This document shows positions 12,430-28,935 of a stretch of 64,000 nt of DNA, in pieces; the stretch's first letter is position 1; every line of letters begins with the position of its first letter. The stretch lies in IMG/VR virus record IMGVR_UViG_3300010371_000030, positions 1-64,000 of that record; one strand, written 5' to 3'. Under the pieces are notes generated by a model. That model was not told the origin of the DNA. It did not search any database and saw only the letters and a list, made by a program, of their open reading frames with translations. The stretch comes from a virus. Made by a program: the position numbers and the translations under genes.

Positions 12430-15400
12430 CTACGCCGTCCCGCCTGCGCCCGATGAAGCGTCCACATCCAACTCGCCGCCATCCAGCACCTCGGCTCTCT
12501 TCAGCCACTCGACGCGACCGCCCGTGTACAGATACGACCATCCCCGCCGCTTGTCCGGCTGTCGCTCCAGTTCCAGCTTCAGGAGCCGCCCAGCCTTGAA
12601 CACGCGCTTGGCATCGACCCACACAGAAGCGAAGATGACCACCTCAATGTACCGAAGGTCGCCGCTGATCATACCGGCATACGCCATCAGACCGCCTTTA
12701 CGGTCGTACTTGAGCTTGACGTTGGTCACCAGTCCACAGAACACACCGCCGCCCTGTGAATGCCAGAACGCCTCGTTGGTGATGCGCAGGTTCGCCTTCC
12801 GCTCGTCGGGCCAAGGGTAGGTTACGGCCGGATGCTGGCCGCTGATCACGCGCTCCCACATCGTCATCGCCTCGCCGGAGCGAACGCGCGTGCGGAAGCC
12901 CTCCATGTCGACCGCGAACTGGACGCGTAGGGTGCCGGTGAAGTTGCTGGCCGTCGCGTGGACGAGAATGGCGGAGCCAACGCCTAGATCGATGATGGGA
13001 CGCAAGTCATCAAAGACATCGATGTCAAACTTGAATCTGTTCTGCTTACCACTCTTGTCTTCGATGTTGACGTTGGCGTACCGGGCGCCCCAGAACTGAC
13101 GCTTGCGCTCCAGCTCGGACGGGAGTTCACCGGTGTGGAAGTCGCCGATCTGGTTGTACTTGACTTCCACGACAACGCCAGCGACGAAACATCCCTTGTT
13201 GTCATAGTCCTTGAAGAAGTTCTCATCGCCCATGTCGGCAAGCTCGACACGCACCTGCTCTTCCATGAAGAGCTTGTAGGCGTCGATGGGGTGGTTGCCG
13301 AAGGCGAGCGGGTTGACCGATGAGGTCACAAACTGTCGCTCCTCATCGGTGTAGTCAGGAACGCTCTGTGCCTCTTCCAGCATCGCATCCAGAGCGTCCA
13401 CGGACTTCTGGCTGCGCGGCTTCGTCAACGTCCCCCAGTATCGCTCCATGTTATCCACGAGCCATCGGATGTTCGGGAACATGTCATCGAGTGCGCCTGC
13501 CTTGGCGAGCGCCGCGACGGCACCCCGGTTGCACTGACGTCGATCAACCCTGTCCGCAAAGTCGACGATGTCCGTGTACGGCTGCGCGGCGATGACCGCG
13601 GCTGCTGCCTTCTCGCCCACACCCTTGATGTCGACCAGCGAACCGCGAATGGCTCCAAGCCCGTCATCGATGCTGAACTGCTGATTGGACACCGAGACGT
13701 GCGGAGGGAGGAGCGGGATGCCATGGCGTTTGGCGTCCTTGGCGATCTGCTGGACGCGAATGCGGTCTGGCTCGTTACGCATCAACGCCCAGTAAAACTC
13801 CAACGGATAGTACACCTTGAGCCACATACACCAGTAGGCGATCATCCCATAGGCCGTAGCGTGGGACTTGTTGAAGCCGTACGACCCAAAGAAGGTGATG
13901 GCATCCATGATACGGTTCGCCACGTCCTTGGTCATCCCGGGCGTATGCTTGAGCGCCCCCTCCACGAAGGCTTCGCGCTCCCGTCCCAGCGTCTCGTCGC
14001 CGATCTTCTTGGCGATGGTCTTGCGCAGAGAGTCGGCGGTGCCCGGGGCGAAGCCCGCGATCTCAGTGAAGATGCGGATGACGTGTTCTTGGTACACGAG
14101 GATGCCGAGCGTATCCTTGGTGATCTCGGACACCATCGGATGGAAGTCGACCTTGGCCACCAGCGCTGGATTCTTCTTGCGCTCCACGTACTTGGTCGCC
14201 AGGCCGGAGCGCGACGTGCCCGGCCGGTTGAGAGCCGTCATCGCGGCGACGTCCTCAAACGTGTCGAAGTTGACGCCCATACACACCTTGTCGGCACTGG
14301 GCGTGTCGTACTGGAAGATGCCGCCGTAATCATGTGCCGTGAACGCTCCCAACACCCTCTGGTCTTGGAGGTCCACGTCCGCCACGCTCTCCATGTCGAT
14401 GACGCGGCCGTGTCGCTCCTCAATCGCCGTCAGGGCGTCGTGGATGACAGAGAGCGTTCGGAGCCCGAGGATGTCGAACTTGACGAGACCCACGGCGGCG
14501 ACTGCATACATGTCCGTAGCAGACACCACGACGTCGGCGCCATCGTGCTTCCGGACTTCCAGGGGGATGACGTCGGTGAGCGGCACCGACGAAGCGATGA
14601 CGCCGGCTGCGTGGATGCCCAGATTCTTGGCCATGCCCTCCAGGTGCTGAGCGTGATACAGCACCTTGGGATAGTCCTCATTGAACTTCTTACAGACATC
14701 GAAGTCCTTGAAGGAGTCCACGATGGTCTGGCTCGCTCGCTCGTCGCCGCTAGACCGCTCGATGATCGAGCTAGTCACTTGTCGCACCCTCATGAGCGGG
14801 ACGTCAAGCACCCGGGAGACGTCGATGAGACACTGCTTGCCGCTGAGCTTGCCGATGGTCGCGATCTGGCACACCTTGTCATCGCCATACGTCCGTCGGA
14901 TGTACTCGATGATCTCGTGTCGACGTCTGTCTTCAAAGTCCATATCGCAGTCGGGCATGTCGATGCGATGGGGGTTGATGAAGCGCTCAAAGATGAGCCC
15001 GTGCTCGATGGGGTCGATGGCCGTGATGCCGAGGAGATACGCCACGAGCGAGCCGGCCACAGAGCCTCGCCCCGGCCCCAGGACGTGACGCTGCTCCCGA
15101 GCGAAGGCGTAGATGTCGCGCACAATCAGGAAGTAGTTGACGAAGCCCTGGCGCTTGAGAGCGCCCATCTCGTGCTTCAGGCGCGCCGTGTAGCGCTGGG
15201 TGGCCTCGTTCATGTCGATGCCTTCGCGCGCAGCGTATGCGGCGACGCGTTGGGGCATATCACGCCATGCCCACCCCGTCAGACATAGATGCTTCAGATA
15301 CGCAAACGTGTCGTGGCCAAACGACTCCGGGATGCCCGGCTCCGGGAGAAGCGCCTTGCGCCAGTCCACGACCACCTTGGCCGTACATTGATCTGCGAAG

Positions 15401-16323
15401 GCGAGCGTGTTGTCCAGCGCCTTCTTGACGAGGTGGGAGGGCATGAACTCGTGGTGACGCGCGAAGGCTTCCGCCATCTCCTTGCGCCGCCTGAAGTGGA
15501 ACTCATTGCCATCGAACTTGAACCTGTTCGGGTCGTCCAAATTCGAGCCTGTACCAATACACAATAGAATCTCGTGGTGCTCCCAATCGGACTGCTCGAT
15601 ATAATGCGCATCCTGCGTGGCCAGGAGTCGGTCGGTGCCTCCGTAGCGTTCCGCGAGCTTGAGCATCAGGGCGTTGGCAACGCGTTGATCCGCGATGGCG
15701 TGAGGTTGAACCTCAAACCACAGGCGGTCTGCGAAGATGCCGTGAAGCCGGTCTGCGTACTCCAGCGCCTGGCGCCGCTTGCCGGCATTCCAGCTGTCGT
15801 TGACCGGACTCGACAGGCACCCCGTCGAGATCATCACGCCTTCGCTGTACTTCTCCAGCTCGTTGACGTCGATGCGAGGCTTGTAGTAGAAGCCCTCCAT
15901 GAAAGCGGCCGACGACAGCTTGTACAGATTCCGAAGCCCGACGTCATCCCGGGCCCACGCGCAGATGTGCCACCGATCGCGGATGCCCATCCGCTCCTCG
16001 TGGTTCTTGATCGCATCCTTGCACTCTGCCTTCTTGAGCCCCTTGGTGACCTCTGCCTTCTCTTCGTCCGTAAGCCCACGTCGGCGCATGTCCGGAGACA
16101 CGTAGAATTCGATGCCGTAGATGGGCTTGATCCCGTGCTCCTCGGTCGCCTCGTGGAGCTTCATGTAGCCACGCATCGTACCGTGGTCGGTGATGGCGAT
16201 AGCGCGATGGCCGCGCTCCTTGGCCGCCTTGACATAGCCTCCGATGGTCCCGCAACCATCGAGCTGGCTCATGTCGCTGTGTGTGTGTAGCGTTACAAAG
16301 TCATCGACTTCAGCCACGGCCAC
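12430..16323 (-). CDS. dnaE: DNA polymerase III alpha subunit (family C)
   Basis: PHP domain (LHTHS, AITDHG, YYKPRID), GPGRGSVAGSL, MPDCDMDF, HAAGV, KFDILGL and YGFNKSHA. Confidence 0.97.
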   Translation of the reverse strand: MAVAEVDDFVTLHTHSDMSQLDGCGTIGGYVKAAKERGHRAIAITDHGTMRGYMKLHEATEEHGIKPIYGIEFYVSPDMRRRGLTDEEKAEVTKGLKKAECKDAIKNHEERMGIRDRWHICAWARDDVGLRNLYKLSSAAFMEGFYYKPRIDVNELEKYSEGVMISTGCLSSPVNDSWNAGKRRQALEYADRLHGIFADRLWFEVQPHAIADQRVANALMLKLAERYGGTDRLLATQDAHYIEQSDWEHHEILLCIGTGSNLDDPNRFKFDGNEFHFRRRKEMAEAFARHHEFMPSHLVKKALDNTLAFADQCTAKVVVDWRKALLPEPGIPESFGHDTFAYLKHLCLTGWAWRDMPQRVAAYAAREGIDMNEATQRYTARLKHEMGALKRQGFVNYFLIVRDIYAFAREQRHVLGPGRGSVAGSLVAYLLGITAIDPIEHGLIFERFINPHRIDMPDCDMDFEDRRRHEIIEYIRRTYGDDKVCQIATIGKLSGKQCLIDVSRVLDVPLMRVRQVTSSIIERSSGDERASQTIVDSFKDFDVCKKFNEDYPKVLYHAQHLEGMAKNLGIHAAGVIASSVPLTDVIPLEVRKHDGADVVVSATDMYAVAAVGLVKFDILGLRTLSVIHDALTAIEERHGRVIDMESVADVDLQDQRVLGAFTAHDYGGIFQYDTPSADKVCMGVNFDTFEDVAAMTALNRPGTSRSGLATKYVERKKNPALVAKVDFHPMVSEITKDTLGILVYQEHVIRIFTEIAGFAPGTADSLRKTIAKKIGDETLGREREAFVEGALKHTPGMTKDVANRIMDAITFFGSYGFNKSHATAYGMIAYWCMWLKVYYPLEFYWALMRNEPDRIRVQQIAKDAKRHGIPLLPPHVSVSNQQFSIDDGLGAIRGSLVDIKGVGEKAAAAVIAAQPYTDIVDFADRVDRRQCNRGAVAALAKAGALDDMFPNIRWLVDNMERYWGTLTKPRSQKSVDALDAMLEEAQSVPDYTDEERQFVTSSVNPLAFGNHPIDAYKLFMEEQVRVELADMGDENFFKDYDNKGCFVAGVVVEVKYNQIGDFHTGELPSELERKRQFWGARYANVNIEDKSGKQNRFKFDIDVFDDLRPIIDLGVGSAILVHATASNFTGTLRVQFAVDMEGFRTRVRSGEAMTMWERVISGQHPAVTYPWPDERKANLRITNEAFWHSQGGGVFCGLVTNVKLKYDRKGGLMAYAGMISGDLRYIEVVIFASVWVDAKRVFKAGRLLKLELERQPDKRRGWSYLYTGGRVEWLKRAEVLDGGELDVDASSGAGGTA

Positions 16324-17161
16324 GCCTCGCCTTCAGCGCCTCTACATTGGCACGAACGTACTTGACTACATCGATCAGATCTTTGGGCCAGTCGCCGCCC
16401 GACTTGGACATCCAATCCAGGTAGCCGCCATCTTCCAGAACGATGTCGCTCAGCGACTTGCCCTTGTGCTTGCCGACGTTCATCACGGCGTCGGTGCCAT
16501 CCACAGACAGCGTATACCGCTTGTCCTTGGGGAACACAATCGTCGTGGGTGGAAGCGGCGCCGGGGGAGGGCCGAGGGGAACACCTCGGGACACGGCGGC
16601 AGCCTTGATAGCGTCTCGCTTGATCCTTGTGCGATCCTTCGACATAGCGCCGAGATCCACCCCGCCCGGCCGAGGCGAGTCAGGCGAGCGCGACGTGGGC
16701 GGCGGCACTTCCTCGCTGGCCTCGCTGGCGAACAAGGCAGACATCTCTTCATCGGACATCTCGCGCGACGGCAACGAAACCTTGGCAACTGCGACCAGGC
16801 CAATCTTCACAGCCGCGGCCTTGATCCGATTCACAGCCACCGGCACTTGCAGCGACGCTCGTTGCTTCGCCACGTCCACGCTCGGCTTGAATGGATGTGC
16901 GTACTTGACCGCATCTTCCAGCGCGGCGCTCACCTCGGGTCGCACGCTCCAGTCGCGCCCGCAGTAGGTGACGCAGCCTCTTAGGGTATGTTTGTTTGCG
17001 CTGCCCAGTTGCTCCGTTACACCGTCGAGAATGACAGTCATAACGGCGTGTCTGTAGAATGATTCCAGAGAATCGACGGACACGCCCGAAGGCGATTCGG
17101 GCTCGGACACAGATGCCGCTCCGGGCGCGAAGCGGCGGCGCATCTCTTCCAAGGAGGGCAT
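16310..17161 (-). CDS. Hypothetical protein with C-terminal small domain (GKHKGKSLSDI...GYLDWM; exonuclease X C-terminal/DUF3820-like)
   Basis: 283-aa ORF overlapping the dnaE start; C-terminal motif recognised by eye. Confidence 0.7.
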   Translation of the reverse strand: MPSLEEMRRRFAPGAASVSEPESPSGVSVDSLESFYRHAVMTVILDGVTEQLGSANKHTLRGCVTYCGRDWSVRPEVSAALEDAVKYAHPFKPSVDVAKQRASLQVPVAVNRIKAAAVKIGLVAVAKVSLPSREMSDEEMSALFASEASEEVPPPTSRSPDSPRPGGVDLGAMSKDRTRIKRDAIKAAAVSRGVPLGPPPAPLPPTTIVFPKDKRYTLSVDGTDAVMNVGKHKGKSLSDIVLEDGGYLDWMSKSGGDWPKDLIDVVKYVRANVEALKARRGRG

Positions 17162-17183: not shown

Positions 17184-18248
17184 CTACTGGATCACGCGGA
17201 GGCGACGCCCGCTCCACGGGTCACGACCCCAGAACAGCTTCCGCTTGTCGGCGTGCTCGCCCATCGCACGCGCCGTCGCCTGGTTGTCGGCGAGTGTGCG
17301 TTGCTCGGGCGTGGCCTCGTGCGTGTAGTGGAGAGAGCACGGCGGCAGCTTGTCCTCGCCCGTGTAGCGGCGCCTGTTCTCCTCCATGAAACGGCACCCC
17401 ACCCACTCGGTCGGAGGCGTCGCCGTCGTGCCGTCGTACAAGCTCGGCGGGCCCTCCTTGCCCGACAGGCACGGAGGCGTCACCAGCGAGCTGAACACGG
17501 GATCCACCTTCTCCACCAGCTCCGCGATCATCCCCTCGATGATCGGCCCCCAGATGCCGAGCTGAAGAATCCAGCACCCACGCTCGCCCACGATGTGGCG
17601 GAGAGACTGGATGTTGAGGCTCCAGCTCATGCGGTGCTGCATCGCGATGGGGATCAGCTCGCGCGCATCCTCCATCGGGATGCCTTCCGCCACCATCTCG
17701 TTGTAGAGCGCCTCGGTCACCTCCATGTGGTGCGTCCACTTGGAAAGCAGCTCCGCCATCTTGGGGTGCTCCAGAATCGACTGCGGCACCCGATAGGCGT
17801 TGTCGCGCGCGAACGTGCCCATGTCCAAGATACGCGCCGACTGCGACCAGAAGCTGGACGTGGCCCGGTCCGGGATGATGTCGATGACCGTGTCGGCTCC
17901 GGAGCGCTCCGGCGAAGGCGAGACGCCGATGCGATGTCTCACCGCGTGCTCACGCCAGCTGACGCTGATGTTCTCGAACATGAACACGAAGTTGACGTGC
18001 TCGCCGATGGGGATGCCCTGGCGGATGACGGCCAGGAAGAGCTTGCGCACTTCGTCGGGGTGTACTTCGGCCTTGATCTGCTGCGGCGTACGCAGCGGCT
18101 TGTCCGTCTTGGACGCCTCCCAGATGGCGTACACCACCTCCATCGGGTCGCTGGTCCACGACATCAACGTGACCTTGGGCGTCTTGATCACGGGCTCCGG
18201 CTGTTCGTTGCTATCGAACACCACGGGCTTCTTCACTCTATCCGACAT
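17184..18248 (-). CDS. thyX: ThyX-like flavin-dependent thymidylate synthase homologue (divergent)
   Basis: EHVNFVFMFENISVSWREHAVRHR...SFWSQSAR, EDARELIP and NIQSLRHIVGERGC. Confidence 0.8.
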   Translation of the reverse strand: MSDRVKKPVVFDSNEQPEPVIKTPKVTLMSWTSDPMEVVYAIWEASKTDKPLRTPQQIKAEVHPDEVRKLFLAVIRQGIPIGEHVNFVFMFENISVSWREHAVRHRIGVSPSPERSGADTVIDIIPDRATSSFWSQSARILDMGTFARDNAYRVPQSILEHPKMAELLSKWTHHMEVTEALYNEMVAEGIPMEDARELIPIAMQHRMSWSLNIQSLRHIVGERGCWILQLGIWGPIIEGMIAELVEKVDPVFSSLVTPPCLSGKEGPPSLYDGTTATPPTEWVGCRFMEENRRRYTGEDKLPPCSLHYTHEATPEQRTLADNQATARAMGEHADKRKLFWGRDPWSGRRLRVIQ

Positions 18249-18267
18249 GGCTGATCTCCTTGCTCTG

Positions 18268-19425
18268 CTACTGTCCGACGGCTGCGAGCGCTTCCCGCAG
18301 TCGCTTCAACCCCTCTTCCAGTTCGTCAGGACTGATGTTGAGGGGAGGAGTGATCTTGATGACGCCGACACCGCGCCGGAAGGCGCCGATGATCAGGCCT
18401 CTCTTCATGGCTTCGTTGGCCACATCGAAGATGCTTACATCGCAGTCGAAAGCGACCATGGCGCCGACGCGACGAATGGCGCCCACGTGCGGCATGCCCT
18501 CGATTCCCTTGGCGATGATCTGGCCCACGGTCTCCGGAACGCCTCGGTGGAGGTCCAGCCAATCCATCATCCCATCGATGGCGAGCATTCCGAGTCCGGA
18601 GCCACCGAACGTGGAGAAGTGGGTGCCAGGAGTGAATGCCTGGCTGTACGGCATCTCGGCCACGACCGCGGCCACCGGGAAGCCCATGCCCAGCCCCTTG
18701 GCGAACACGGAGATGTTCGGCCGGAAGTCGCCCCGGAACCTGTCAGCGTAGCTCATCGTGCCGGAGCGCCCCGCACCCGTCTGAACCTCGTCCCAGATCA
18801 CGGGCGCTCCGAGAGCGAAGGCACGACGGTGAACGGAGCGGAGCCACTGCTGATCATACGGGCGAACGTCGTTGGAGCACGCGACCGGCGACAGGAGCAC
18901 GGCGGCGCAATCTTCCCCGATGCCCCTGGGCTCGGTGAAGCGCTGGAATCCCTCCGGCAGCGGGCCATAGCCGTCCGTGTGATACGACGGGCAATCGCCG
19001 CTCGCCATCGAGGCGTACGTGCGCCCGTGATACGCCCCGGCGACCGTGTAGATGGTCGTACGCGCGTTCTGCTTGTCGATGTCCCATTGCCATCGTCGGG
19101 CGAGCTTGATCGCAGTCTCGATGCCTTCTGTCCCCGACGTACAGAAGAACACGTGGTCCATCTCCAACTTGGAGCAGAGGCGCGCCGCCAGCTTCTCCCG
19201 GAACGGCCAGTTGAAGATACACGGCACGTGGAACGGAACACTCACAGTTCCAGTCGCCGCACGATTGAGCATCTGCGAGTGCTCTGTCGAGTTGTATCCC
19301 AGCGATGCCGCTCCGCTATCGGCAAAGAAGTCGATGAACGCGCGACCATCCTGCGCATACAGAGTAGCGCCGCTGGCGTCCACGAAGGGAACGTCACGAA
19401 CGGTCACTGTGGACATCAGATGCAT
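18268..19425 (-). CDS. Class-III PLP-dependent aminotransferase (ArgD/ornithine aminotransferase-like), copy 2
   Basis: SGTEGIETAIKLAR, AYHGRT, WDEVQTGAGRSG, FAKGLG (PLP Lys) and HFSTFGG. Confidence 0.92.
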   Translation of the reverse strand: MHLMSTVTVRDVPFVDASGATLYAQDGRAFIDFFADSGAASLGYNSTEHSQMLNRAATGTVSVPFHVPCIFNWPFREKLAARLCSKLEMDHVFFCTSGTEGIETAIKLARRWQWDIDKQNARTTIYTVAGAYHGRTYASMASGDCPSYHTDGYGPLPEGFQRFTEPRGIGEDCAAVLLSPVACSNDVRPYDQQWLRSVHRRAFALGAPVIWDEVQTGAGRSGTMSYADRFRGDFRPNISVFAKGLGMGFPVAAVVAEMPYSQAFTPGTHFSTFGGSGLGMLAIDGMMDWLDLHRGVPETVGQIIAKGIEGMPHVGAIRRVGAMVAFDCDVSIFDVANEAMKRGLIIGAFRRGVGVIKITPPLNISPDELEEGLKRLREALAAVGQ

Positions 19426-19973
19426 TTCCAGATCTCCTGGTTGGCTCGCTTCAAGACGTCGGCCGGGGCGAGCGCTCCGGTGGGGATACGGCAAGGCATC
19501 CCAAACAGATGGTAGGACCAGTGTAGAATAGCATCCTGTAGCTGGTCATGACGAACGCGCATCATTCGACGCTCCGGGGCGAGCCTCGCGCTGGCGGTCT
19601 CGTGACTCACGGTCAGCACGATAGGAACGATGGTTACGCCCTCCAGTAGGCGCAACCAAACGCGGCACATGTCCGCTCCGATGCTCGGCGGGGTGCCGGC
19701 GTATGCCAGCCCCGACGGCAGCGAGCGGTCCAGGATGAACGACTGCCGCGCTGACAGCGCGCTGACAGCATCCGCGATGAACAGGTCCTCTACTGGCGAG
19801 TTGAAGGGCACGCGCAGACGCCGCAGAAGCTCATCGCCGCTGCCATTGTTCCCCCAGTGGCCCTTCCTGAAGGCTTGGAACGGCTTGAGCTCCACCAAGT
19901 CGTGTTGTTCCTTGAGGGCAGTGACCAGCGTGGACTTGCCGCCGCCGTTGACACCTTCAACGACCACGAGCAC
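19416..19973 (-). CDS. Thymidylate/dNMP kinase-like P-loop kinase
   Basis: VVVEGVNGGGKST and ILDRSLPSGLAY. Confidence 0.85.
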   Translation of the reverse strand: MLVVVEGVNGGGKSTLVTALKEQHDLVELKPFQAFRKGHWGNNGSGDELLRRLRVPFNSPVEDLFIADAVSALSARQSFILDRSLPSGLAYAGTPPSIGADMCRVWLRLLEGVTIVPIVLTVSHETASARLAPERRMMRVRHDQLQDAILHWSYHLFGMPCRIPTGALAPADVLKRANQEIWKCI

Positions 19974-21093
19974 CGGACATCTCCCTGGCTGCTTCGTTCA
20001 TGATCGCCAACCCGTGCTCCAGCTCCGCGCGAACGATGTTGAGAGGCGGGGCAATCTTGACCGGGTTGGGCCGCCACGCTCCGAGGATGAGACCACGCTC
20101 GCCACAGAGCCGGGCGAACGATCGCGCGTCTCCTCGGATGTCGAAGGCGATCATCAGGCCAACGCCACGGACCGCCCGAACCCAGGAGCTGCGCTCCAGA
20201 TGCTCACGAAGCCATTCGCCATTCTCGTGAATGCTCTTCAGCAGCGACGGCGTGAGAGCATCGATCATGGCGTTGATGAACACCATCTGAATAGGATTGC
20301 CTCCGAACGTGGAGAAGTGCGTACCAGGGGTGAACGTGTCCGCCAACTTCTCGTTGGCGAGCGTCGCGCCGACAGGGATGCCCATGCCCAGCCCCTTGGC
20401 CAAGCATACGATGTCAGGACGCGGGCGCAGGTGGTTCCATGCTCCGGCGCGACCAGACCCGCTCTGGACCTCATCGAAGATGAGCACGATATCGTTGGCG
20501 TCTGCGTACGTTCGGAGCGCCTTCAGGAAGGCACGGCTGAGCACTCGGACGTCGTGGTGGCCGAACACAGGCGCCAGGAGGATGGCCGCGGCGTCGCGCG
20601 GAATCTCCTCCAGCTCGTTGAACTTGTAGAAGCCCTCCGGCATCGGGCCGAAGCCGTCCGTGTGGTATGGCGGCCCATCGCCCGCTGCGACCGTTGCCAG
20701 CGAACGTCCGTGGAAACCTCCCGCCATGGCGTAGATGTCCGACCGTCCGGTGCCGCGCTTGTGGTGCCATAGACGAGCGAGCTTGATAGCGGCCTCCACG
20801 GACTCCGCGCCGCTGCTACTGAAGAACACCTTGGACATGCCTGTCGTCGCGCAGAGACGACGGGCCGCCAAGTCGCGCTCCGGAAACGGGCAGATGTTCG
20901 GCACATGGACCGGGATGCCTTCCCTCACGATACGCACCATGGCCGCCGTGGCTTCCGTCGAGTTGTACCCCATCGAAGCGGTGCCCGTGTCGGTGAAGAA
21001 GTCCAGATGCTTCCGTCCACCATCGTCGATCAGGTATGGCCCTTCGCCGCCCACGAACAGATTCGGCTTGTATTCGACCGTCGACATCAGCAT
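19957..21093 (-). CDS. Class-III PLP-dependent aminotransferase, copy 1
   Basis: SGAESVEAAIKLAR, GFHGRS, FDEVQSGSGRAG, LAKGLG and HFSTFGGNP. Confidence 0.92.
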   Translation of the reverse strand: MLMSTVEYKPNLFVGGEGPYLIDDGGRKHLDFFTDTGTASMGYNSTEATAAMVRIVREGIPVHVPNICPFPERDLAARRLCATTGMSKVFFSSSGAESVEAAIKLARLWHHKRGTGRSDIYAMAGGFHGRSLATVAAGDGPPYHTDGFGPMPEGFYKFNELEEIPRDAAAILLAPVFGHHDVRVLSRAFLKALRTYADANDIVLIFDEVQSGSGRAGAWNHLRPRPDIVCLAKGLGMGIPVGATLANEKLADTFTPGTHFSTFGGNPIQMVFINAMIDALTPSLLKSIHENGEWLREHLERSSWVRAVRGVGLMIAFDIRGDARSFARLCGERGLILGAWRPNPVKIAPPLNIVRAELEHGLAIMNEAAREMSGARGR

Positions 21094-21096
21094 GGT

Positions 21097-21993
21097 TTAG
21101 ATCCCCAACCAGGCCAGAACGGCCTGCCAGTCGTTGACGCGAGTGATGTTGGCTTGTTCGGGCATATCTCGATTGCGAGGAGTGTCGAACAGGAGTACAG
21201 GCACCCCGATGGCAGCCAAGGCAGTGGCGTTACGCGTGTGGTCCTCCACGAACGCCCGCGGCCAAGCGGGTTGGATATGGTGATAAACCGCCTCGCACTT
21301 GTCCTTATTGAAGAGCAGCAGATCGTAGGGCACATCGTGGCGCGTCAGCCAATCCATCGTATCGCCCTGAAGACGACGATACTGCCACTGGGGTCGCGCC
21401 GTGACGACCGCGATGGTGTACCCGTGCGCCTTGACCTTCCGGAGCGCTTCCGGCGCGCCTCGGACAGGAGGGCACCGGAGGAAGCCGCCCGATCTGTTCC
21501 ACTCGTCTTTGAACGCTTCCTCGTTGGCCTGGATCGCAGCCGGAGTGGCACCGTCGATGGCTTCCAGCAGGGCGCGCCATTCGCTAATGTCCACCACGAC
21601 GTCATCGAGATCCACGCACAGAAGCTTGGTAGTCGCTTCCAGACTCGTGCGCTCCGCCTCGGCTCGCGCCGTCGTGATCGCGGTCTTGCGACGGAACGCG
21701 TCCATCAGTTGTTCGGCGGTGATGCCGTTCAACTGTGCCCAAGCCAGAGCGCACTTGAATACATCGGCAACATCTTCCGCCGCGTCCATCTGAACGACGG
21801 CCGGCATACGCAGGAGGTGTCGCTTGTAGCCCGGAACGTGTCGCCCCAGGTCGGTGACTTCCTCGTGTGCTTGGGCCACTAGCTCGGTGGCGACGGTTCG
21901 CCGTTCGGCATCATTCAGCCCGGCCGGATCCAGCCCCAGTGCTTCCTGCTGCTCGCGTTGAAGCGTGTACATCTCTGACAGGCGATCACGCAT
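21097..21993 (-). CDS. Fusion of an all-alpha NTP pyrophosphatase (MazG/dimeric dUTPase-like) and a HAD 5'(3')-nucleotidase
   Basis: N-terminal HEEVTDL...YKRH...EDVADVF; C-terminal HAD motifs CVDLDDV, VVTARP, K and FVEDH. Confidence 0.8.
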   Translation of the reverse strand: MRDRLSEMYTLQREQQEALGLDPAGLNDAERRTVATELVAQAHEEVTDLGRHVPGYKRHLLRMPAVVQMDAAEDVADVFKCALAWAQLNGITAEQLMDAFRRKTAITTARAEAERTSLEATTKLLCVDLDDVVVDISEWRALLEAIDGATPAAIQANEEAFKDEWNRSGGFLRCPPVRGAPEALRKVKAHGYTIAVVTARPQWQYRRLQGDTMDWLTRHDVPYDLLLFNKDKCEAVYHHIQPAWPRAFVEDHTRNATALAAIGVPVLLFDTPRNRDMPEQANITRVNDWQAVLAWLGI

Positions 21994-23029
21994 AACGTTG
22001 CCAACCCCACTCGGAGCACATCGCGTACGCTCGCTCCAGAACGACATCCGCCGTTGCCCTTGGATCCCACTGCGCGAACCGACCGAGCGGCTGGATGTGC
22101 GCCGGCCAGGCGGGCTCTCTCTCCAGAGGCAGCAGATGCCCATTCAGCCCCTTGGCCACACGTCGGATGGCCCATCCGTTCGGGAACAGGAAGTTGAGAT
22201 CGCTAGTGAGACCGACGGTGATCCGCTCGTCGCCCTCGGGCCACGCTCCGTTGAACTCACACGCATACCCATCCTCAAACGGATAGATGCGGTGGATGAG
22301 CCCGTCCGGTGTATATGGCGTGTAGATGTAGTCCCACTGGCTGTACGGATCCTTGAGGGCGCCTGGAACCTTCTCACCGCCGCCAGCCACGATCTTGTGC
22401 GGCTCGATGTACACCACGTTGAGACGGATTGCGAGCGCATCCGGGAGCCGGAAGAACATCGCCCGCTGCGCCGCCCAGAGCGGCGCCGTCCAGATCAGGT
22501 AATCATATGGATACACCGCTCCAGAAGTGGCGGTGATCTCGGCGGGCTCCACCTTCGCCACGGCATCTCGCTGTACGAAGGCCTGCCGTTGTAGACGCTC
22601 CACGACGTCCGAAGCATCGCACCGGAGGGCGAGCCGAGCGCCCGTGGCTTCAGGATCGTTCATGGACTTGCCGCTGAACGACGGATCAGGCTCGGTCTGC
22701 CGTGTCTTCCTGTAGTGGTCTTGCTGGATGCGCTTGGCCGCTTCCGTTGGCATCCCGCGGAGCACATCCGGATACGCCTCCACCTTCCCCCGGAGATGGA
22801 TGCCGCCCATCACCGTGTACTGGGTGAATACACCGCCGATGTCGATGATCATCGACTTCATCTCATCGGACGCGTGGAGGTAGCGCAGACCGCCCGAGAG
22901 CCATTCGCCGCCGACGCGCCCTGGCTCCAGGACGATGGGCGACGTATGTTTGTGCTGCTTCGCCACGTAGTTGGCGATCAACCCCGCTACGCCAGCACCG
23001 ATGATGACCACTCTCATCTTGTCAGCCAC
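21986..23029 (-). CDS. FAD/NAD(P)-binding oxidoreductase (UDP-galactopyranose mutase / amine oxidase superfamily)
   Basis: Rossmann motif VIIGAGVAG...LE...VGG, GLRYLH, YDYLIWTAP and C-terminal LGRFAQW; GTG start after GGAGG. Confidence 0.82.
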   Translation of the reverse strand: MADKMRVVIIGAGVAGLIANYVAKQHKHTSPIVLEPGRVGGEWLSGGLRYLHASDEMKSMIIDIGGVFTQYTVMGGIHLRGKVEAYPDVLRGMPTEAAKRIQQDHYRKTRQTEPDPSFSGKSMNDPEATGARLALRCDASDVVERLQRQAFVQRDAVAKVEPAEITATSGAVYPYDYLIWTAPLWAAQRAMFFRLPDALAIRLNVVYIEPHKIVAGGGEKVPGALKDPYSQWDYIYTPYTPDGLIHRIYPFEDGYACEFNGAWPEGDERITVGLTSDLNFLFPNGWAIRRVAKGLNGHLLPLEREPAWPAHIQPLGRFAQWDPRATADVVLERAYAMCSEWGWQRYA

Positions 23030-23122: not shown

Positions 23123-24043
23123 TCACTCCAGGTGACGGCCGTTTGCGACCGTGGACAAGTCGAGAATACCTGCTCTCACGGCGCGGTCTAGCGCCTCAGC
23201 CACGAGAGCTGCCCCGCCTTTGTCAAGGCGGTGGAATCGAACCTTGAACGCTCCGTCCCTGCCCGTGTAGTCTTCCGGACTCAAACGAGCCCTGTTCTGG
23301 AGGGAGAACATGCCGATGAATGATTTGTAGTCACAGGCGACACGCACCTCCAGCACGCCGTTGTTCGGACGGAAGTACATGGAAGTGACTGCCATACGTC
23401 CACCGTCGTCTGTCTTCATGTACAGTGAGCAGTATCCGCTCCGTGCGCGACGGTCGACCATGAAGAACTGCCCCGGCTCCGCCTCGCCCTGGCTCGTGGC
23501 CATGGTCCGGGCGAGGCGCGACAGGACGTTCTGCTGGTAGTGGTCGCCAATCTCCTCCACGATTCGGCGACCTTCGACGTTGGGCACGAGCTTGCCACGG
23601 GAAGCGCCCGGCTTCTTCACGACGAGCGGAGCCTTGCTCACGACCGACTTGACAGCAGAGCTGACAACGGCGGTGGCAGGACGGATGCCGCCTTGCGTTA
23701 CCAGCGGGGCGTGCGCCGCTACACCGTCCTTGATCTTGCAGCGAGCGATCGTGGTCGACACGGCTTTCTGTAGCTCGTCATCATCGCCAGCGGCGATAGC
23801 GTACGACGACACATGCCCGTCGGCGCCTCGGGCTCGCACAATCTGGATGAGCTGCGACCGCTCCAGCCGGTTGGAACGTCCGTAGATGCCGGTGGCGACG
23901 CATCGGTCACGATACACGCATGGCATCCGGTCCGCCTCCGTCTCGCCGGAGGGGGCGCCGTCGCACTGCTCATCGCCTCGGTGGTACGTGGCGACGCACA
24001 GCGGCATCAGCGTCTTGTTCCCCTTGTACGGTTGCTCACCCAT
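23123..24043 (-). CDS. Hypothetical protein with Cys-rich N-terminus
   Basis: Likely start MGEQPY overlaps the end of the sigma-factor gene. Confidence 0.7.
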   Translation of the reverse strand: MGEQPYKGNKTLMPLCVATYHRGDEQCDGAPSGETEADRMPCVYRDRCVATGIYGRSNRLERSQLIQIVRARGADGHVSSYAIAAGDDDELQKAVSTTIARCKIKDGVAAHAPLVTQGGIRPATAVVSSAVKSVVSKAPLVVKKPGASRGKLVPNVEGRRIVEEIGDHYQQNVLSRLARTMATSQGEAEPGQFFMVDRRARSGYCSLYMKTDDGGRMAVTSMYFRPNNGVLEVRVACDYKSFIGMFSLQNRARLSPEDYTGRDGAFKVRFHRLDKGGAALVAEALDRAVRAGILDLSTVANGRHLE

Positions 24044-25058
24044 CTTGCACCTCGGCCGTATGCTTCCGCTTGGCGAGCGCCTTGTTGAGCTCGCCATACC
24101 AAGGCAAGTAGTCCGACACCTGTTTCCAGTGGCCAGCGACGCCGATGACTTCGCCCGTCCTGTGGTTGAACCGTCCCTCCAGCAGGAGCGTCGCTTGGCG
24201 CTCATCATCGAGCCGCAGGTGCACGATGGAGCCCCATTCGTAGTGCTCGATGATCCTGTGGATGTCGCCGTCCGACGTCGCATCGACAGCGGCACAAGGG
24301 CGTGCGTCCAGCTGTCGAGCGTCGATGAGCGTCTGGATGAACAGGACGTCGGCGGCCATGTCGCTCTTATACACCATCGGCCAGCGCCCGTCGCGCATCG
24401 ACGCCTCGATGATGTCGATGTATTCGGACTCCTCCAGGATGATGGTGAACAGTCGCTTGATCTTGTGTACAGACCAGTCGATCTCATTCTTGTTCAGCCC
24501 GAGGAAGCCACCGATGGCGTCGATGGTCGGACTCTCAATGCCCCTGTTCCTCATGTAGATCAGGAACGCTTCCGAGGGCTGCGATTGGCACTCGAACACG
24601 TCACGCTCCCGGCCAGACAGGGACATCATCAGCCGGAGGCGGAGCAGCCGGATGCGCTCGTCTGCTTCCGCGTGGAGGTACTCCGACTCTGGGCAGCCCT
24701 CGTCAGGCGGGTCAAGCAGAGGGTGCGACTCCATCGACTCCACGCTGTAGCGCAGCAGACGCTCGGAGCCGTCGGGAGACGTCACCACCACGTGCGGAGC
24801 CCTCATCTGCGCCGTCGCTGCGTACATCAGCCCGCACATCGCGTTCCTGATCACCCTTCGGGCGTAGGCTTTGATGCCGCCGCGGCTCTTGGCGTAATCG
24901 TAGTGCGGGAGCGACATCAGCAGAGCGATGCGCGCTTCCTGCTCAGCATCATCTCTGTCAACACCGAGCGCGCGGTGGAAGCGCTCCGACTCATCGCGGA
25001 TGACCCCCTCCACGTGCGGTACCAGCTCTTGGTACAGAGTGTCAAATGTAACGTTCAT
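24036..25058 (-). CDS. Sigma-70 family RNA polymerase sigma factor-like protein
   Basis: Region 2-like DRDDAEQEARIALLMSLPHYDYAKS...KAYARRVIRN; region 4-like LSGRERDVF...TIDAIGGFLGL. Confidence 0.75.
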   Translation of the reverse strand: MNVTFDTLYQELVPHVEGVIRDESERFHRALGVDRDDAEQEARIALLMSLPHYDYAKSRGGIKAYARRVIRNAMCGLMYAATAQMRAPHVVVTSPDGSERLLRYSVESMESHPLLDPPDEGCPESEYLHAEADERIRLLRLRLMMSLSGRERDVFECQSQPSEAFLIYMRNRGIESPTIDAIGGFLGLNKNEIDWSVHKIKRLFTIILEESEYIDIIEASMRDGRWPMVYKSDMAADVLFIQTLIDARQLDARPCAAVDATSDGDIHRIIEHYEWGSIVHLRLDDERQATLLLEGRFNHRTGEVIGVAGHWKQVSDYLPWYGELNKALAKRKHTAEVQDG

Positions 25059-27778: not shown

Positions 27779-27780
27779 GT

Positions 27781-28935
27781 TCAGACCGTCCCTCCAAAGT
27801 GACGCTGGATGATCGCCGCGATGGCCTTGGAGTCATCATCCGGTAGCTTGTTGAGGATAGTGATCTTGGCGGCACGGCTAACATTGGAGAAGCGGACCGC
27901 CTTGCGCGCCCAAGCGATGAGGCGCCGAGGCGAGAGAGACACCATCGTCTGCTGGTTACGTTGCGCCTCGCGCACCTTCATCGCCACCTGGACCATCTGC
28001 TCGGCCCACGACTGTCGAAGCCCTGGTGCCTTGGACATCAGGATCTTCTGTTCCGCATCGGGCTCGGGATAGTCCATCCGGATGACGGTCTGAAACCGAT
28101 CCAGCAGCGCCTCGTTCATCGGCCCCGTTCCAGCGTACAGGCCGGAGTCGTCGCCGTAGCCGAGCGTGTTGGCCGTGGCGATGAAGCGGAAGTGCTCATG
28201 GAACGACACCTCGGTGCCGCCCGCCCGATCCATCAGCATCAGCTGGCGATGCTCCTCCAGCACAGGATGTAGAACGAAGGTGACCGTGGGTGGCGCGGCG
28301 TCGAATTCGTCAGCCAGGAACCAGTGCCCGCGTTGCGCCGAGTCCGGCAGCGGACCGTCGGTCCAGGAAGTGATCGCCTGTCCGCTCGCTTCGTCCACGC
28401 GCAGGTCCTTGCCTCCCACGAGGCTTCCGAGCCGCATCTCACCGTTGAAGGGACAGCGTCGGAGCGGCTGATCCACGATGGCCGCCAACTCGCGCACGAG
28501 GGTGGTCTTGCCGAGACCGGGCGGCCCCACGATCAGGACATTCTCCTTGTCCTGGACCGCCAACGCCAGCTCCTCCAGCGCCGCCGTTTCGTTGGGACCC
28601 ATCTCCCACTGCTCGTCGTGGATGGGGATGTATGCCCTGTCGTATCCGTCCAGATCCTCACGCCGCGCAAGCGTCGCGACGCCGAACTTGAAGACGTTCC
28701 CAGGAGAGGCCACGGCCACGGGCGTCTCAACGTCCGGCGCGGAGGCGGCCTTGGCGTTGGCCTTGCCCGTCTCGGAAGCGAGCGGAGCACCAGGGTACTT
28801 CTTCAAGTACGCCCTGGTGTTCATCTTGTGGACGGAGGACAAGTGCGCGTCCAGGCGGTGGTACCACAAGTTACACTCGCGGCACTGGACCTTCTCTCGC
28901 CCGGCGCTGTCCCGTCTGTCGTGTGCGTCGCCCAT
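27781..28935 (-). CDS. cobS: CobS/MoxR-like AAA+ ATPase with N-terminal C2H2 (MucR-like) Zn finger
   Basis: CRECNLWYHRLDAHLSSVH; GPPGLGKT; LADEFD; FIATANT; NEALLDRF; LSPRRL. Confidence 0.88.
   Translation of the reverse strand: MGDAHDRRDSAGREKVQCRECNLWYHRLDAHLSSVHKMNTRAYLKKYPGAPLASETGKANAKAASAPDVETPVAVASPGNVFKFGVATLARREDLDGYDRAYIPIHDEQWEMGPNETAALEELALAVQDKENVLIVGPPGLGKTTLVRELAAIVDQPLRRCPFNGEMRLGSLVGGKDLRVDEASGQAITSWTDGPLPDSAQRGHWFLADEFDAAPPTVTFVLHPVLEEHRQLMLMDRAGGTEVSFHEHFRFIATANTLGYGDDSGLYAGTGPMNEALLDRFQTVIRMDYPEPDAEQKILMSKAPGLRQSWAEQMVQVAMKVREAQRNQQTMVSLSPRRLIAWARKAVRFSNVSRAAKITILNKLPDDDSKAIAAIIQRHFGGTV

Follow-up and report, generated by a model that had tools for sequence, protein, structure and literature searches.

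A conserved gene module beside the DNA polymerase of uncultivated phages and its possible role in making a C5-modified deoxyuridylate

Known routes and the gene content of this phage

Bacillus phages of the SPO1/SP8/phi-e type make hydroxymethyluracil pre-replicatively, using a dUMP hydroxymethylase, a dTTPase-dUTPase, a dTMP nucleotidase, an hmdUMP kinase and a dCMP deaminase. In the phages M6, PaMx11, ViI, SP10, PhiW-14 and SH-Ab 15599 modification is post-replicative and is performed by 5-HMUDK and aGPT-Pplase/AADT, followed by a PLP decarboxylase, a radical SAM enzyme, an FAD lyase or an acetyltransferase; the end products are amine-bearing C5 thymidines, with 5-aminomethyl-dU a known intermediate (PMC8989533, PMC13458397). 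The tRNA nucleosides cmnm5U, nm5U and mnm5U are made by MnmEG and MnmC: uracil is alkylated at C5 using flavin and CH2-THF with an amine nucleophile, and FAD-dependent cleavage by MnmC to the aminomethyl group is followed by SAM methylation (PMC10723064; PMC8989533).

The window analysed here is a stretch of 64,000 nucleotides (positions 1 to 64,000 of IMG/VR record IMGVR_UViG_3300010371_000030). It carries a module with a core of five proteins: a flavoprotein, a MazG-HAD fusion, an aminotransferase, a ThyX homologue and a kinase. The logic of the SPO1/SP8/phi-e type is matched by a thymidylate-synthase homologue (dUMP), a dedicated dNMP kinase, a dCMP deaminase and the phage's own polymerase, and the pyrophosphatase and nucleotidase of the module could remove dTTP and dTMP. 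In contrast to those phages, the synthase is of the ThyX and not the ThyA family, the pyrophosphatase and nucleotidase are fused, and a class-III transaminase and a flavoprotein of UDP-galactopyranose-mutase (UGM)/amine-oxidase fold are additional.

A flavoprotein (gp47 in PaMx11), PLP enzymes and tailoring genes that vary between phages are common to this module and the M6/PaMx11-type systems. Their defining kinase and transferase are, however, absent here, the PLP enzyme is of class III and ArgD-like, and the genes present suggest that the chemistry takes place on free nucleotides rather than on DNA. A tblastn search of the genome for the post-replicative thymidine-hypermodification toolkit (5-HMUDK, aGPT-Pplase/AADT, M6-type PLP enzyme and radical SAM enzyme) gave no match; ThyA, PurZ and a class I/II ribonucleotide reductase (Ribonuc_red_lgC) were likewise not found in the genome. 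A literature search returned no description of a ThyX-plus-transaminase route or of such a module. These results agree with an earlier note on this DNA, which had set the locus apart from the known amine-bearing thymidine systems as these start from ThyA-family hydroxymethylases and are completed on DNA.

MnmEG and MnmC are mirrored by ThyX, the flavoprotein and an accessory methyltransferase, the last found in relatives, but their substrate is tRNA and not a dNMP, and that pathway has no transaminase. No homology of MnmG or MnmC to the module proteins was detected by any search run.

Organization of the cluster and predicted proteins

Six tightly packed genes were located on the minus strand (17184-23017), with neighbours overlapping or at most 22 nt apart; a scan of the cluster found no minus-strand terminator-like site within it. 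All six ORFs described in the earlier note were recovered with their family matches, one gene away from the phage DnaE (12430-16323, minus strand; DNA_pol3_alpha, PHP, finger and HHH domains). The intervening gene (16310-17161, 283 aa) lies between DnaE and the ThyX-like gene and, as judged from the gene layout, would couple the module translationally to DnaE.

This position bears on a very improbable reading in which the product is not destined for phage DNA. It would instead be a nucleoside analogue or antimetabolite directed against the host or competing phages, or a precursor attached post-replicatively to DNA or another target by an unrecognised transferase. Such a pool-level product needs no recognisable DNA transferase, the cassette is dispensable, and the combination of ThyX, aminotransferase and HAD loosely recalls nucleoside-antibiotic pathways. 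The coupling to DnaE among replication genes speaks against this reading, as does the dedicated dNMP kinase, which suggests a triphosphate end product; export, resistance or transferase genes were not seen in the module.

The ThyX-like protein (17184..18248, minus strand, 354 aa) matches Pfam Thy1 (8.7e-20) and was aligned by Foldseek to ThyX with a TMt of 0.70, whereas its TIGR02170 score (53 bits) is below the cut-off of 87.9; it is a divergent member of the ThyX family, as noted earlier. More than 260 homologues were found. The fold is that of Thermotoga maritima ThyX (TM0449), to which it is ~19% identical, and all alignable canonical dUMP-binding residues are kept (equivalents of RHR, S88, R90, E144, R147 and R174). 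It differs from canonical ThyX in an insertion of ~25 aa between RHR and the S-x-R element (the substrate loop), which splits the RHRx7S signature, in the replacement of Tyr91 by Ile, in a C-terminal extension of ~100 aa and in four Cys residues invariant in the family (alignment A1). C225 lies two residues after the R174 equivalent, and C260, C285 and C304 are in the extension.

Since the dUMP-binding residues are kept, the protein could simply make dTMP. This leads to a serious rival, although one we consider rather unlikely, in which the genes form a canonical thymidylate-supply cassette and the DNA is canonical. dUTP would be converted to dUMP by the MazG/dUTPase-like domain, dUMP to dTMP by ThyX and dTMP to dTDP by the kinase. 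The transaminase and flavoprotein would be accessory, for example in the supply or recycling of glycine/glyoxylate, glutamate/2-oxoglutarate or polyamine, or in maintaining the ThyX flavin, or a possible metal centre, in the reduced state. In line with this, the genome has no thymidylate-synthase-like gene other than ThyX, and a predicted dCMP deaminase, encoded outside the window, would feed dUMP. Related ThyX genes also adjoin polymerase genes in other phages without an aminotransferase: homologues ~40% identical occur in PolA-type phages with no aminotransferase, kinase or flavoprotein homologues nearby, and homologues ~25% identical adjoin DnaQ-DnaE in Pbunavirus and Wifcevirus.

Two class-III aminotransferases are present, as noted earlier, but the pair is not general. 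Aminotransferase 2 (AT2; 19957..21093, minus strand, 378 aa; Aminotran_3 1.9e-68) is the orthologue-like, ArgD-like PLP copy on a short branch of the tree; its closest solved structure is acetylornithine aminotransferase (2eh6, 1e-62). It keeps PLP Lys233, Asp207 and Arg130, and its EPIQGEGG loop is replaced. Aminotransferase 1 (AT1; 18268..19425, minus strand; Aminotran_3 5.8e-54; alternative start M27 at 19416) is 44% identical to AT2 and has the longer branch (1.77 versus 0.83). Both match one and the same single gene in every related locus, and by sequence AT1 is a divergent paralogue found in this phage only among the contigs examined. The cluster thus comprises five components and one lineage-specific duplicate. 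ArgD/AstC and ornithine aminotransferase are the best sequence relatives, with the PLP Lys, the Asp and the HGR(T/S) Arg kept. The phage enzymes nevertheless fall below every NCBIfam cut-off for ArgD/AstC/OAT (222-273 bits versus 372-410), the gate loop EPIQGEGG is replaced across the clade by an APVxGNNxV-type consensus, in this phage Lys stands in place of the C-terminal Arg, and the genes stand in a nucleotide-metabolism operon and not an arginine operon.

The interconversion of omega-amines and aldehydes is natural for class-III enzymes. In a further reading, which we regard as improbable, the transaminase forms an aldehyde from an omega-amine (putrescine, ornithine or GABA) and ThyX uses it in place of CH2-THF/formaldehyde as carbon donor on the reduced flavin, giving a C-C-linked 5-(aminoalkyl)- or 5-(carboxyalkyl)-dUMP. 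ThyX structures have been solved with an N5-carbinolamine flavin and for ThyX-FADH2 soaked with formaldehyde (7ndz, 7ndw). The remodelled substrate/folate region of ThyX (insertion, loss of Y91, C-terminal extension) and the adjacency of ThyX and aminotransferase in all arrangements, a split one included, would also fit. This reading is, however, purely inferential and leaves the flavoprotein with no clear role, and we know of no ThyX that accepts a larger aldehyde.

The kinase (19416..19973, minus strand, 185 aa) refines the dNMP kinase of the earlier note to a dTMP-kinase-like P-loop nucleoside-monophosphate kinase. Its Thymidylate_kin (1e-5) and TIGR00041 (6e-7) matches are weak and below cut-off; the GxxGxGK P-loop and a D82-R83-S motif are invariant in 20 orthologues. 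It has the P-loop alone in common with the M6 5-hmdU DNA kinase.

The proposed NTP-pyrophosphatase/HAD nucleotidase fusion (21097..21993, minus strand) was also recovered. Its all-alpha N-terminus (residues ~1-115) is a MazG/dimeric-dUTPase-like NTP pyrophosphatase domain that matches MazG (8/21), dUTPase_2 (6/21) and PRA-PH (11/21) in orthologues only, not in the copy of this phage. The HAD domain exceeds the Pfam cut-off for NT5C-type 5'(3')-deoxyribonucleotidase (3.3e-9; range 3-5e-9) and by sequence belongs with the pyrimidine 5'(3')-deoxyribonucleotidases. Its DxD, T, K and ED motifs are all preserved; D128, D130 and K232 are invariant and T198, E250 and D251 nearly so (alignment A3).

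The flavoprotein (21986..23017, minus strand) has 343 aa counted from M26, after which the FAD Rossmann motif GxGxxG follows; the ORF extends to 23092. Its AlphaFold model (pLDDT 90) gave VIA-align Z scores of 26 with UGM (4dsg), 23.7 with protoporphyrinogen oxidase (PPO) and ~20 with amine oxidases, and the predicted fold is that of the UGM/PPO/amine-oxidase superfamily. An FAD flavoprotein is thus present as claimed, but a DAO-type enzyme is ruled out by this fold. The DAO family is implied for the M6/PaMx11 enzyme by gene annotation in the paper, whereas the Pfam DAO match here is marginal (5e-4). Homologues were found only in phage-like contigs or viral clusters, and the family shows invariant residues (alignment A2).

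Conservation and probable loss of the module

Gene-neighbourhood analysis found the five core genes side by side, in an order that varies, in ~30 contigs (~100 kb each) of uncultivated phages, where ThyX is 37-56% identical to that of the window and the set is never dispersed; the co-occurrence of ThyX, aminotransferase-III, kinase and MazG-HAD raised in the earlier note was thereby observed. DnaE and the module are syntenic in all clade members. The recurrence of the set in these contigs shows that its arrangement is not due to chance; the genes are conserved and inherited together as a unit next to the phage polymerase. Since much of the co-occurrence is within one viral lineage, it is partly inherited synteny. 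The record of the module consists entirely of assembled soil-metagenome contigs.

All five proteins were also found in a complete phage of 101 kb that has terminal repeats and whose architecture differs. ThyX, aminotransferase and kinase are at one locus, and the flavoprotein homologue and MazG-HAD are ~24 kb away. In every arrangement, this one included, the aminotransferase gene is a direct neighbour of ThyX. A supply cassette leaves unexplained why no other gene is linked to ThyX as tightly as the transaminase, even where the genome background is unrelated, and why every member has, fused to the pyrophosphatase, a pyrimidine deoxyribonucleotidase-type HAD, which would drain dUMP/dTMP.

ThyX, Aminotran_3 and MazG-HAD are absent genome-wide from two complete or near-complete relatives; one of the two lacks the kinase too, and the only candidate for it in the other is a weak kinase-like match at a different place. 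The DnaE tree puts these genomes in two distinct positions (one placement with a support of only 88), and within the clade at least two losses of the MazG-HAD/aminotransferase/ThyX/kinase block are probable. The cassette is therefore dispensable, as auxiliary nucleotide-supply genes usually are, and a modified dNTP is no requirement for the DnaE of the clade. The flavoprotein left in the cassette-less genomes has lost otherwise-invariant residues, including a Gly of the Rossmann motif; the supply reading does not account for this change.

In relatives the module includes or adjoins variable genes, namely a methyltransferase-like family of 260 aa, a class-I methyltransferase and a sulfotransferase; a supply cassette offers no explanation for these either. 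Variable tailoring genes are typical of hypermodification clusters (PMC8989533).

Proposed pathway

The reading we favour, tentatively and at a little short of an even chance, is that the five-component nucleotide-pool module makes a non-canonical C5-substituted deoxyuridylate pre-replicatively, which replaces or dilutes thymidylate in the phage DNA, the substituent being most likely of aminomethyl type. We infer every step of the proposed flow. dUMP would come from the phage dCMP deaminase, and the remodelled ThyX would place a one-carbon unit on C5 via its flavin and skip the usual final reduction, giving an adduct of hydroxymethyl or amino-acid type. Flavoprotein and ArgD-like transaminase together would then turn the substituent into a primary amine, either by oxidation to the aldehyde and transamination or by an oxidative C-N cleavage like that of MnmC or PaMx11 gp47, with the transaminase recycling the 2-oxo acid. 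The modified dNMP would be phosphorylated by the dTMP-kinase-like enzyme, the competing canonical nucleotide removed by the MazG-HAD fusion (dNTP to dNMP to nucleoside) and the product incorporated by DnaE. In relatives, the accessory methyltransferase-like or sulfotransferase genes would further tailor the group.

We count in favour of this modified deoxyuridylate the contiguity of the shuffled set, its presence in the 101-kb phage, the probable block losses with residue loss in the surviving flavoprotein, and the nucleotide-level logic (dTMP-kinase motifs, MazG/dUTPase-NT5C fusion, remodelled ThyX and dCMP deaminase). The sub-threshold transaminases with their replaced gate loop, the tailoring genes of relatives and the missing post-replicative toolkit are counted likewise. 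Against it we count the canonical ThyX catalytic residues and the ~40% identical homologues of PolA-type phages, the resemblance of a dUTPase-like domain, thymidylate synthase and dTMP kinase to a canonical dTTP-supply cassette, and the dispensability of the cassette. Class-III transaminases with nucleotide substrates are rare. Typical functions of the UGM/PPO/amine-oxidase fold are C-N or C-C oxidation and the UGM reaction, and to our knowledge the oxidation of a hydroxymethyl group (an alcohol) has no precedent in it; the step from hydroxymethyl to carbonyl is therefore without precedent in this fold. The pre-replicative, amine-bearing C5-modified dU first proposed for the locus is plausible and has partial support: the co-inherited unit, the absence of the toolkit, ThyA and PurZ, the presence of a dCMP deaminase and the lack of a described ThyX-plus-transaminase route in the literature searched speak for it, whereas the canonical ThyX residues and this carbonyl step are its weak points.

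If the favoured reading is true, the module would be a previously undescribed way of making a modified DNA building block of thymidine type. The likely gain for the phage would be protection against restriction or other DNA-targeting defences.

Locus and genome content

The full viral record (105,832 bp) is complete (CheckV 100%), and the window covers its first 64 kb at a GC content of ~62%. The source DNA was from soil metagenomes (three DNA runs, present as contigs). Tape-measure and baseplate genes identify a tailed phage, which encodes its own replication set: a DnaB-like helicase, a primase-like protein, RecA, SbcCD-like proteins, a 5'-3' exonuclease, a CobS/CobT-like pair and DnaE.

The module consists of six minus-strand genes placed between the CobT-like (VWA) and CobS-like (AAA+ MoxR) pair (25058-28935, minus strand) and DnaE (12430-16323, minus strand). 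They encode a flavoprotein (21986-23017), a fusion of a MazG-like domain with a HAD nucleotidase domain (MazG-HAD; 21097-21993), the class-III aminotransferase AT2 (19957-21093), a kinase (19416-19973), a second class-III aminotransferase, AT1 (18268-19425), and a ThyX-like protein (17184-18248). The six tightly packed genes, one gene away from DnaE, that had been described in an earlier note were confirmed by the ORF coordinates, adjacent genes overlapping or being separated by at most 22 nt; the by-eye family assignments also proved right in Pfam and NCBIfam searches. No terminator-like site was found on the minus strand within the cluster. Across the related loci of the clade that were examined, the CobT/CobS-like pair mostly keeps this position upstream of the module.

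The gene separating ThyX from DnaE (16310-17161, minus strand) encodes 283 aa in the window phage and 107-159 aa in relatives, an ExoX-like C-terminal motif being the sole part common to these versions; DnaQ takes this position in Pbunavirus and Wifcevirus. An ORF of 454 aa that lies upstream of the flavoprotein gene (23123-24487, minus strand) was considered as a pathway member and rejected. Its conservation is restricted to the last ~300 aa (the true start is likely to be M148), which gave no Pfam match, carry no enzyme signature and are syntenic across the clade. This conserved part begins with four invariant cysteines (zinc-ribbon-like) and continues with a basic linker; a role of the product in DNA binding or regulation is probable.

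The cluster gave no megablast match among GenBank phages, and the DnaE of the nearest cultured phage is at most 35% identical. The complete genome was also searched for known pathways. A dCMP deaminase is encoded beyond the window (73470-73802 of the genome), and neither ThyA nor a class I/II ribonucleotide reductase large subunit was found; the ThyX-like protein is thus the sole enzyme of thymidylate-synthase type, with dUMP supplied to it by the deaminase. PurZ (PF00709), diagnostic of the 2-aminoadenine (dZ) pathway, gave no match. From phage M6, which hypermodifies thymidine at the DNA level, gp51, gp52, gp53 and gp54 were compared with the whole 105.8-kb genome by tblastn (best E 0.19); at this BLAST level no homologue of the M6 aGPT-Pplase2, PLP decarboxylase, radical SAM isomerase or 5-HMUDK was found. 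Judged by these searches, the known post-replicative hypermodification toolkit is missing from the genome.

Enzymes of the module

The ThyX-like protein passes the Pfam Thy1 cutoff (71.7 versus 24.8 bits) and fails that of the equivalog family TIGR02170 (53.4 versus 87.9 bits). A ThyX fold is seen in its AlphaFold model (pLDDT 80), for which Foldseek matched Thermotoga maritima ThyX at TMt 0.70 and E 1e-7. Residues were paired with those of the T. maritima enzyme by HMM profile alignment and not by structural superposition: R78/H79/R80 correspond to R104/H105/R106, S88 to S137, R90 to R139, E144 to E193, R147 to R196 and R174 to R223. All of these catalytic and dUMP-site equivalents are invariant in the ThyX alignment, and Tyr91 is replaced by Ile140. 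The compact RHRx7S signature is missing, because an insertion of ~25 aa parts RHR (104-106) from S137-x-R139 in 29/29 aligned members. Beyond the ThyX core the protein is extended C-terminally by ~100 aa. Four cysteines are invariant in the same 29 sequences, C225 two residues past the R174 equivalent and C260, C285 and C304 in the extension. Given its conserved dUMP-site and catalytic residues, ThyX fold and insertion, this is apparently an active flavin-dependent C5-transferase that binds dUMP and whose substrate loop has been altered. The presence of all dUMP-binding and dUMP-activating residues would also suit a canonical thymidylate-supply cassette, a reading that we consider a serious, if less probable, rival. 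The 'thymidylate synthase' of M6 (gp58) has no significant similarity to the window ThyX.

The kinase retains the P-loop and an invariant D82-R83-S, as in dTMP kinases, at scores below the family cutoffs (Thymidylate_kin, PF02223, 25.7 versus 27 bits; TIGR00041, 29.4 versus 83 bits). It has the P-loop alone in common with the 5-hmdU DNA kinase of M6 (gp54).

In the MazG-HAD fusion, the HAD domain matches NT5C (PF06941) at 37.3 bits (cutoff 24.8), as it does in 19/21 orthologues. Its catalytic motifs are intact, D128, D130 and K232 being invariant and T198, E250 and D251 nearly so. The N-terminal domain of the window protein gave no Pfam match; among the 21 orthologues this domain matched MazG in eight (best 1.3e-6), dUTPase_2 in six and PRA-PH in 11, and acidic EE...E/D motifs are conserved in it. 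A dUTPase-like domain, a ThyX and a dTMP kinase would together form a normal dTTP-supply set, but the nucleotidase domain would drain dUMP or dTMP, which canonical supply leaves unexplained. One relative's orthologue (G007:C1:3620-4522) contains a single in-frame TGA, for which a sequencing error, a pseudogene or recoding is possible.

Both aminotransferases belong to Aminotran_3 (AT2, 1.9e-68; AT1, 5.8e-54) and are ArgD-like, with 2eh6 as the nearest solved structure (1e-62). Their top NCBIfam scores (273 and 222 bits) are far below every ArgD/AstC/OAT cutoff (372-410). Alignment with Salmonella ArgD showed the PLP lysine, the Asp of DEVQ, the Arg of HGR(T/S) and the phosphate-binding Thr to be retained in AT1 and AT2; K233 (the PLP lysine), D207 and R130 do not vary across 22 phage members plus Salmonella ArgD. 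The ArgD gate loop EPIQGEGG is, in contrast, changed to the consensus APVxGNNxV throughout the phage clade. At the R-x-x-PPL motif the window phage has Lys in place of the C-terminal Arg that other phages carry. Each relative has one aminotransferase, AT1 being a fast-evolving extra copy of the window phage; the aminotransferase tree itself had little resolution for the most part. GenBank phage records yielded no genuine relatives, the matches being bacterial contigs filed as phage. The obligatory transaminase is left unexplained by canonical thymidylate supply.

Sequence matches of the flavoprotein are limited to its N-terminal Rossmann segment, and its fold was assigned from a confident model (pLDDT 90). 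This predicts the two-domain FAD fold of the superfamily of UDP-galactopyranose mutase (UGM), protoporphyrinogen oxidase (PPO) and flavin amine oxidases, with the best match to UGM 4dsg (Z 26.1, 325 aligned residues, rmsd 3.6), followed by PPO 2ivd (Z 23.7) and putrescine/amine oxidases (Z ~20); the three families are separated by 2-6 Z units. All of the homologues found were on phage-like contigs or in viral clusters.

Conservation, variation and loss among relatives

More than 260 ThyX homologues were found at 48-70% identity, many of them on contigs of 90-116 kb. A scan of IMG/VR with the single ThyX sequence found nothing, whereas a ThyX profile returned 39 loci and a DnaE profile 80 further loci. 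In ~30 of these loci the flavoprotein, MazG-HAD, one aminotransferase, ThyX (down to 37% identical to that of the window) and the kinase are contiguous beside DnaE, which bears out the gene-neighbourhood co-occurrence put forward for checking in the earlier note. The order is shuffled, with the aminotransferase before or after ThyX and the kinase before ThyX in one locus, and the five-gene set is never split up among these ~30 loci. In the related locus L034, single-sequence hhalign of a 295-aa ORF against the MazG-HAD profile and of a 149-aa ORF against the kinase profile gave nothing; a kinase-profile search of the whole record placed a kinase homologue in the frame of the 295-aa ORF. No module was found near DnaE in L047, a DnaE relative (34% identity).

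One further phage, of 101,277 bp, is complete and has terminal repeats; its genome is organised differently, encoding an SNF2 helicase and lacking a DnaE in the vicinity of the module. Its ThyX, aminotransferase and kinase homologue share one locus, and a 271-aa flavoprotein homologue (hhalign 96%) and MazG-HAD lie ~24 kb away. All five components are also present in two other divergent records, with very distant flavoprotein forms.

Fused, longer forms of ThyX were searched for and no Rosetta-stone fusion was found; the single find was an intein-containing homologue, P0170 (871 aa), with Hint, HNH and intein-splicing domains. The DnaE ORFs of seven related loci (L001, L005, L007, L011, L013, L015 and L016) are 1545-1990 aa long, 250-700 aa above that of the window. 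This suggests inteins in both replication-linked genes, ThyX and DnaE, among relatives.

Additional genes are found inside or next to the modules of several relatives. Five lineages have, within the module, a member of a methyltransferase-like family of 260-aa proteins (e.g. L001:9207-10019) that show a GxG SAM-type motif and match TRM5/TYW2 weakly, nothing in Pfam exceeding the threshold. A class-I SAM methyltransferase has a similar place in another relative (L009:180-1070); in a further one a sulfotransferase gene comes immediately after the kinase (L033:12485-13258), and in one more an MT-A70 methyltransferase gene follows the kinase (L008:12827-13411). Tailoring genes that vary between phages characterise hypermodification clusters (PMC8989533), and canonical supply leaves those of the relatives unexplained.

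Other ThyX contexts agree better with canonical supply. A second phage group with a family-A DNA polymerase (PolA-type; L018, L026-L030, L035 and L039) has a ThyX homologue ~40% identical to that of the window, in the order nucleoside 2-deoxyribosyltransferase-like protein and HD YfbR-like 5'-deoxynucleotidase, ThyX, polymerase (e.g. L029:8555-12837). The neighbourhood of this ThyX yielded no homologue of the aminotransferase, the kinase or the flavoprotein, and the locus may be another nucleotide-pool reshaping module. More distant ThyX-like genes, putative 'thymidylate synthases', precede DnaQ-DnaE in Wifcevirus WFC (L043:4998-5801) and Pbunavirus KPP22 (L044:4998-5915); their products have RTR in place of RHR and a similar C-terminal Cys pattern. 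The genes adjoining them (KPP22 ORF047 and WFC_00067) were tried as flavoprotein homologues and rejected (hhalign probability <1%).

Four clade members (L048, L049, L060 and L063) keep the synteny CobS-CobT-zinc-ribbon gene-flavoprotein-DnaE, with the flavoprotein gene directly preceding DnaE and the other four genes, the cassette, missing at the locus. For two of them the records reach 98% and 100% completeness, and no ThyX, class-III aminotransferase, MazG-HAD or ThyA was found anywhere in these two; a kinase homologue is absent from one, and the other has a weak kinase-like match elsewhere. In a tree of the DnaE N-terminal region, the cassette-less genomes are nested among cassette-bearing ones at two separate places (supports 99/98 and 88), which suggests that the block was lost on two or more occasions within the clade. 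The cassette is therefore dispensable, as canonical supply would allow. That reading does not explain the flavoprotein changes after cassette loss, which affect residues invariant in all cassette-bearing phages. The GxGxxG glycine is altered in two of the four cassette-less flavoproteins (G9D), N120 and R320 are also altered, and the GGL motif has become PAH, PIF or GEN in all four, with changes that differ between the two lineages. Such changes would be expected if the flavoprotein's original job was tied to the cassette. The phage of different background, the cassette-less relatives and the flavoprotein changes are evidence beyond inherited synteny.

Candidate pathway and implications

In pre-replicative base replacement a modified dNMP is made and phosphorylated and the competing canonical nucleotide is destroyed. 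The module matches this classical scheme in its dTMP-kinase-like enzyme, its fused pyrophosphatase and nucleotidase and its coupling to DnaE, and would on this reading belong with such pathways. We give slightly less than an even chance to its making a non-canonical, thymidine-replacing nucleotide, a reading in which we infer every chemical step; an aminomethyl-type product specifically is distinctly doubtful.

A transaminase requires a carbonyl or a primary amine, and a flavoprotein fold of the UGM/PPO/amine-oxidase type is suited to C-N oxidation. Two chemically reasonable routes would both lead to a 5-aminomethyl-type dUMP. The first, from the earlier note, would run from hydroxymethyl through formyl to aminomethyl; its weak point is the alcohol oxidation, for which we know of no precedent in this flavoprotein fold. 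In the second, ThyX would trap the exocyclic methylene with an amino acid, like MnmEG on tRNA, and the flavoprotein would cleave the adduct, like MnmC and gp47 of the hypermodifying phage PaMx11 (PMC8989533, PMC10723064). The transaminase would remake the amino acid from the released 2-oxo acid, and the relatives' accessory methyltransferase would parallel the methyltransferase half of MnmC.

A ThyX working without CH2-THF is highly improbable in our estimate. Its reduced flavin would take an amino- or carboxy-aldehyde made by the transaminase and reductively alkylate C5 of dUMP, and DnaE would incorporate the product, a C-C-linked aminoalkyl or carboxyalkyl deoxyuridine. If true, this would reveal a novel enzymology for building long C5 side chains on DNA bases and could account for orphan bases, e.g. 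the dihydroxypentyluracil of phage SP-15, for which we know of no described biosynthesis.

To our knowledge, every amine-bearing thymidine hypermodification characterised begins with a ThyA-type hydroxymethylase and is completed at the DNA level by 5-HMUDK and aGPT-Pplase. A route on free nucleotides through ThyX, a transaminase and a flavoprotein would, if true, be a second, independent solution and, as far as we know, the first description of a phage ThyX put to a new use. In the full-text literature searched, which comprised few subscription journals, we found no account of a phage module combining ThyX with a class-III transaminase; the relevant recent papers deal with ThyA-derived or DNA-level routes (PMC8989533, PMC13458397, PMC13326640). 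The module could, if this reading is true, provide enzymes for amine-functionalised dNTPs in DNA labelling and aptamer chemistry.

The natural cassette-less relatives are ready-made controls. Many members of a large clade of ~100-kb soil phages, for which no close cultured relative was found, carry the module, and the DNA of these phages may therefore be systematically modified. Such modification would bear on restriction and CRISPR evasion and on metagenomic sequencing bias.
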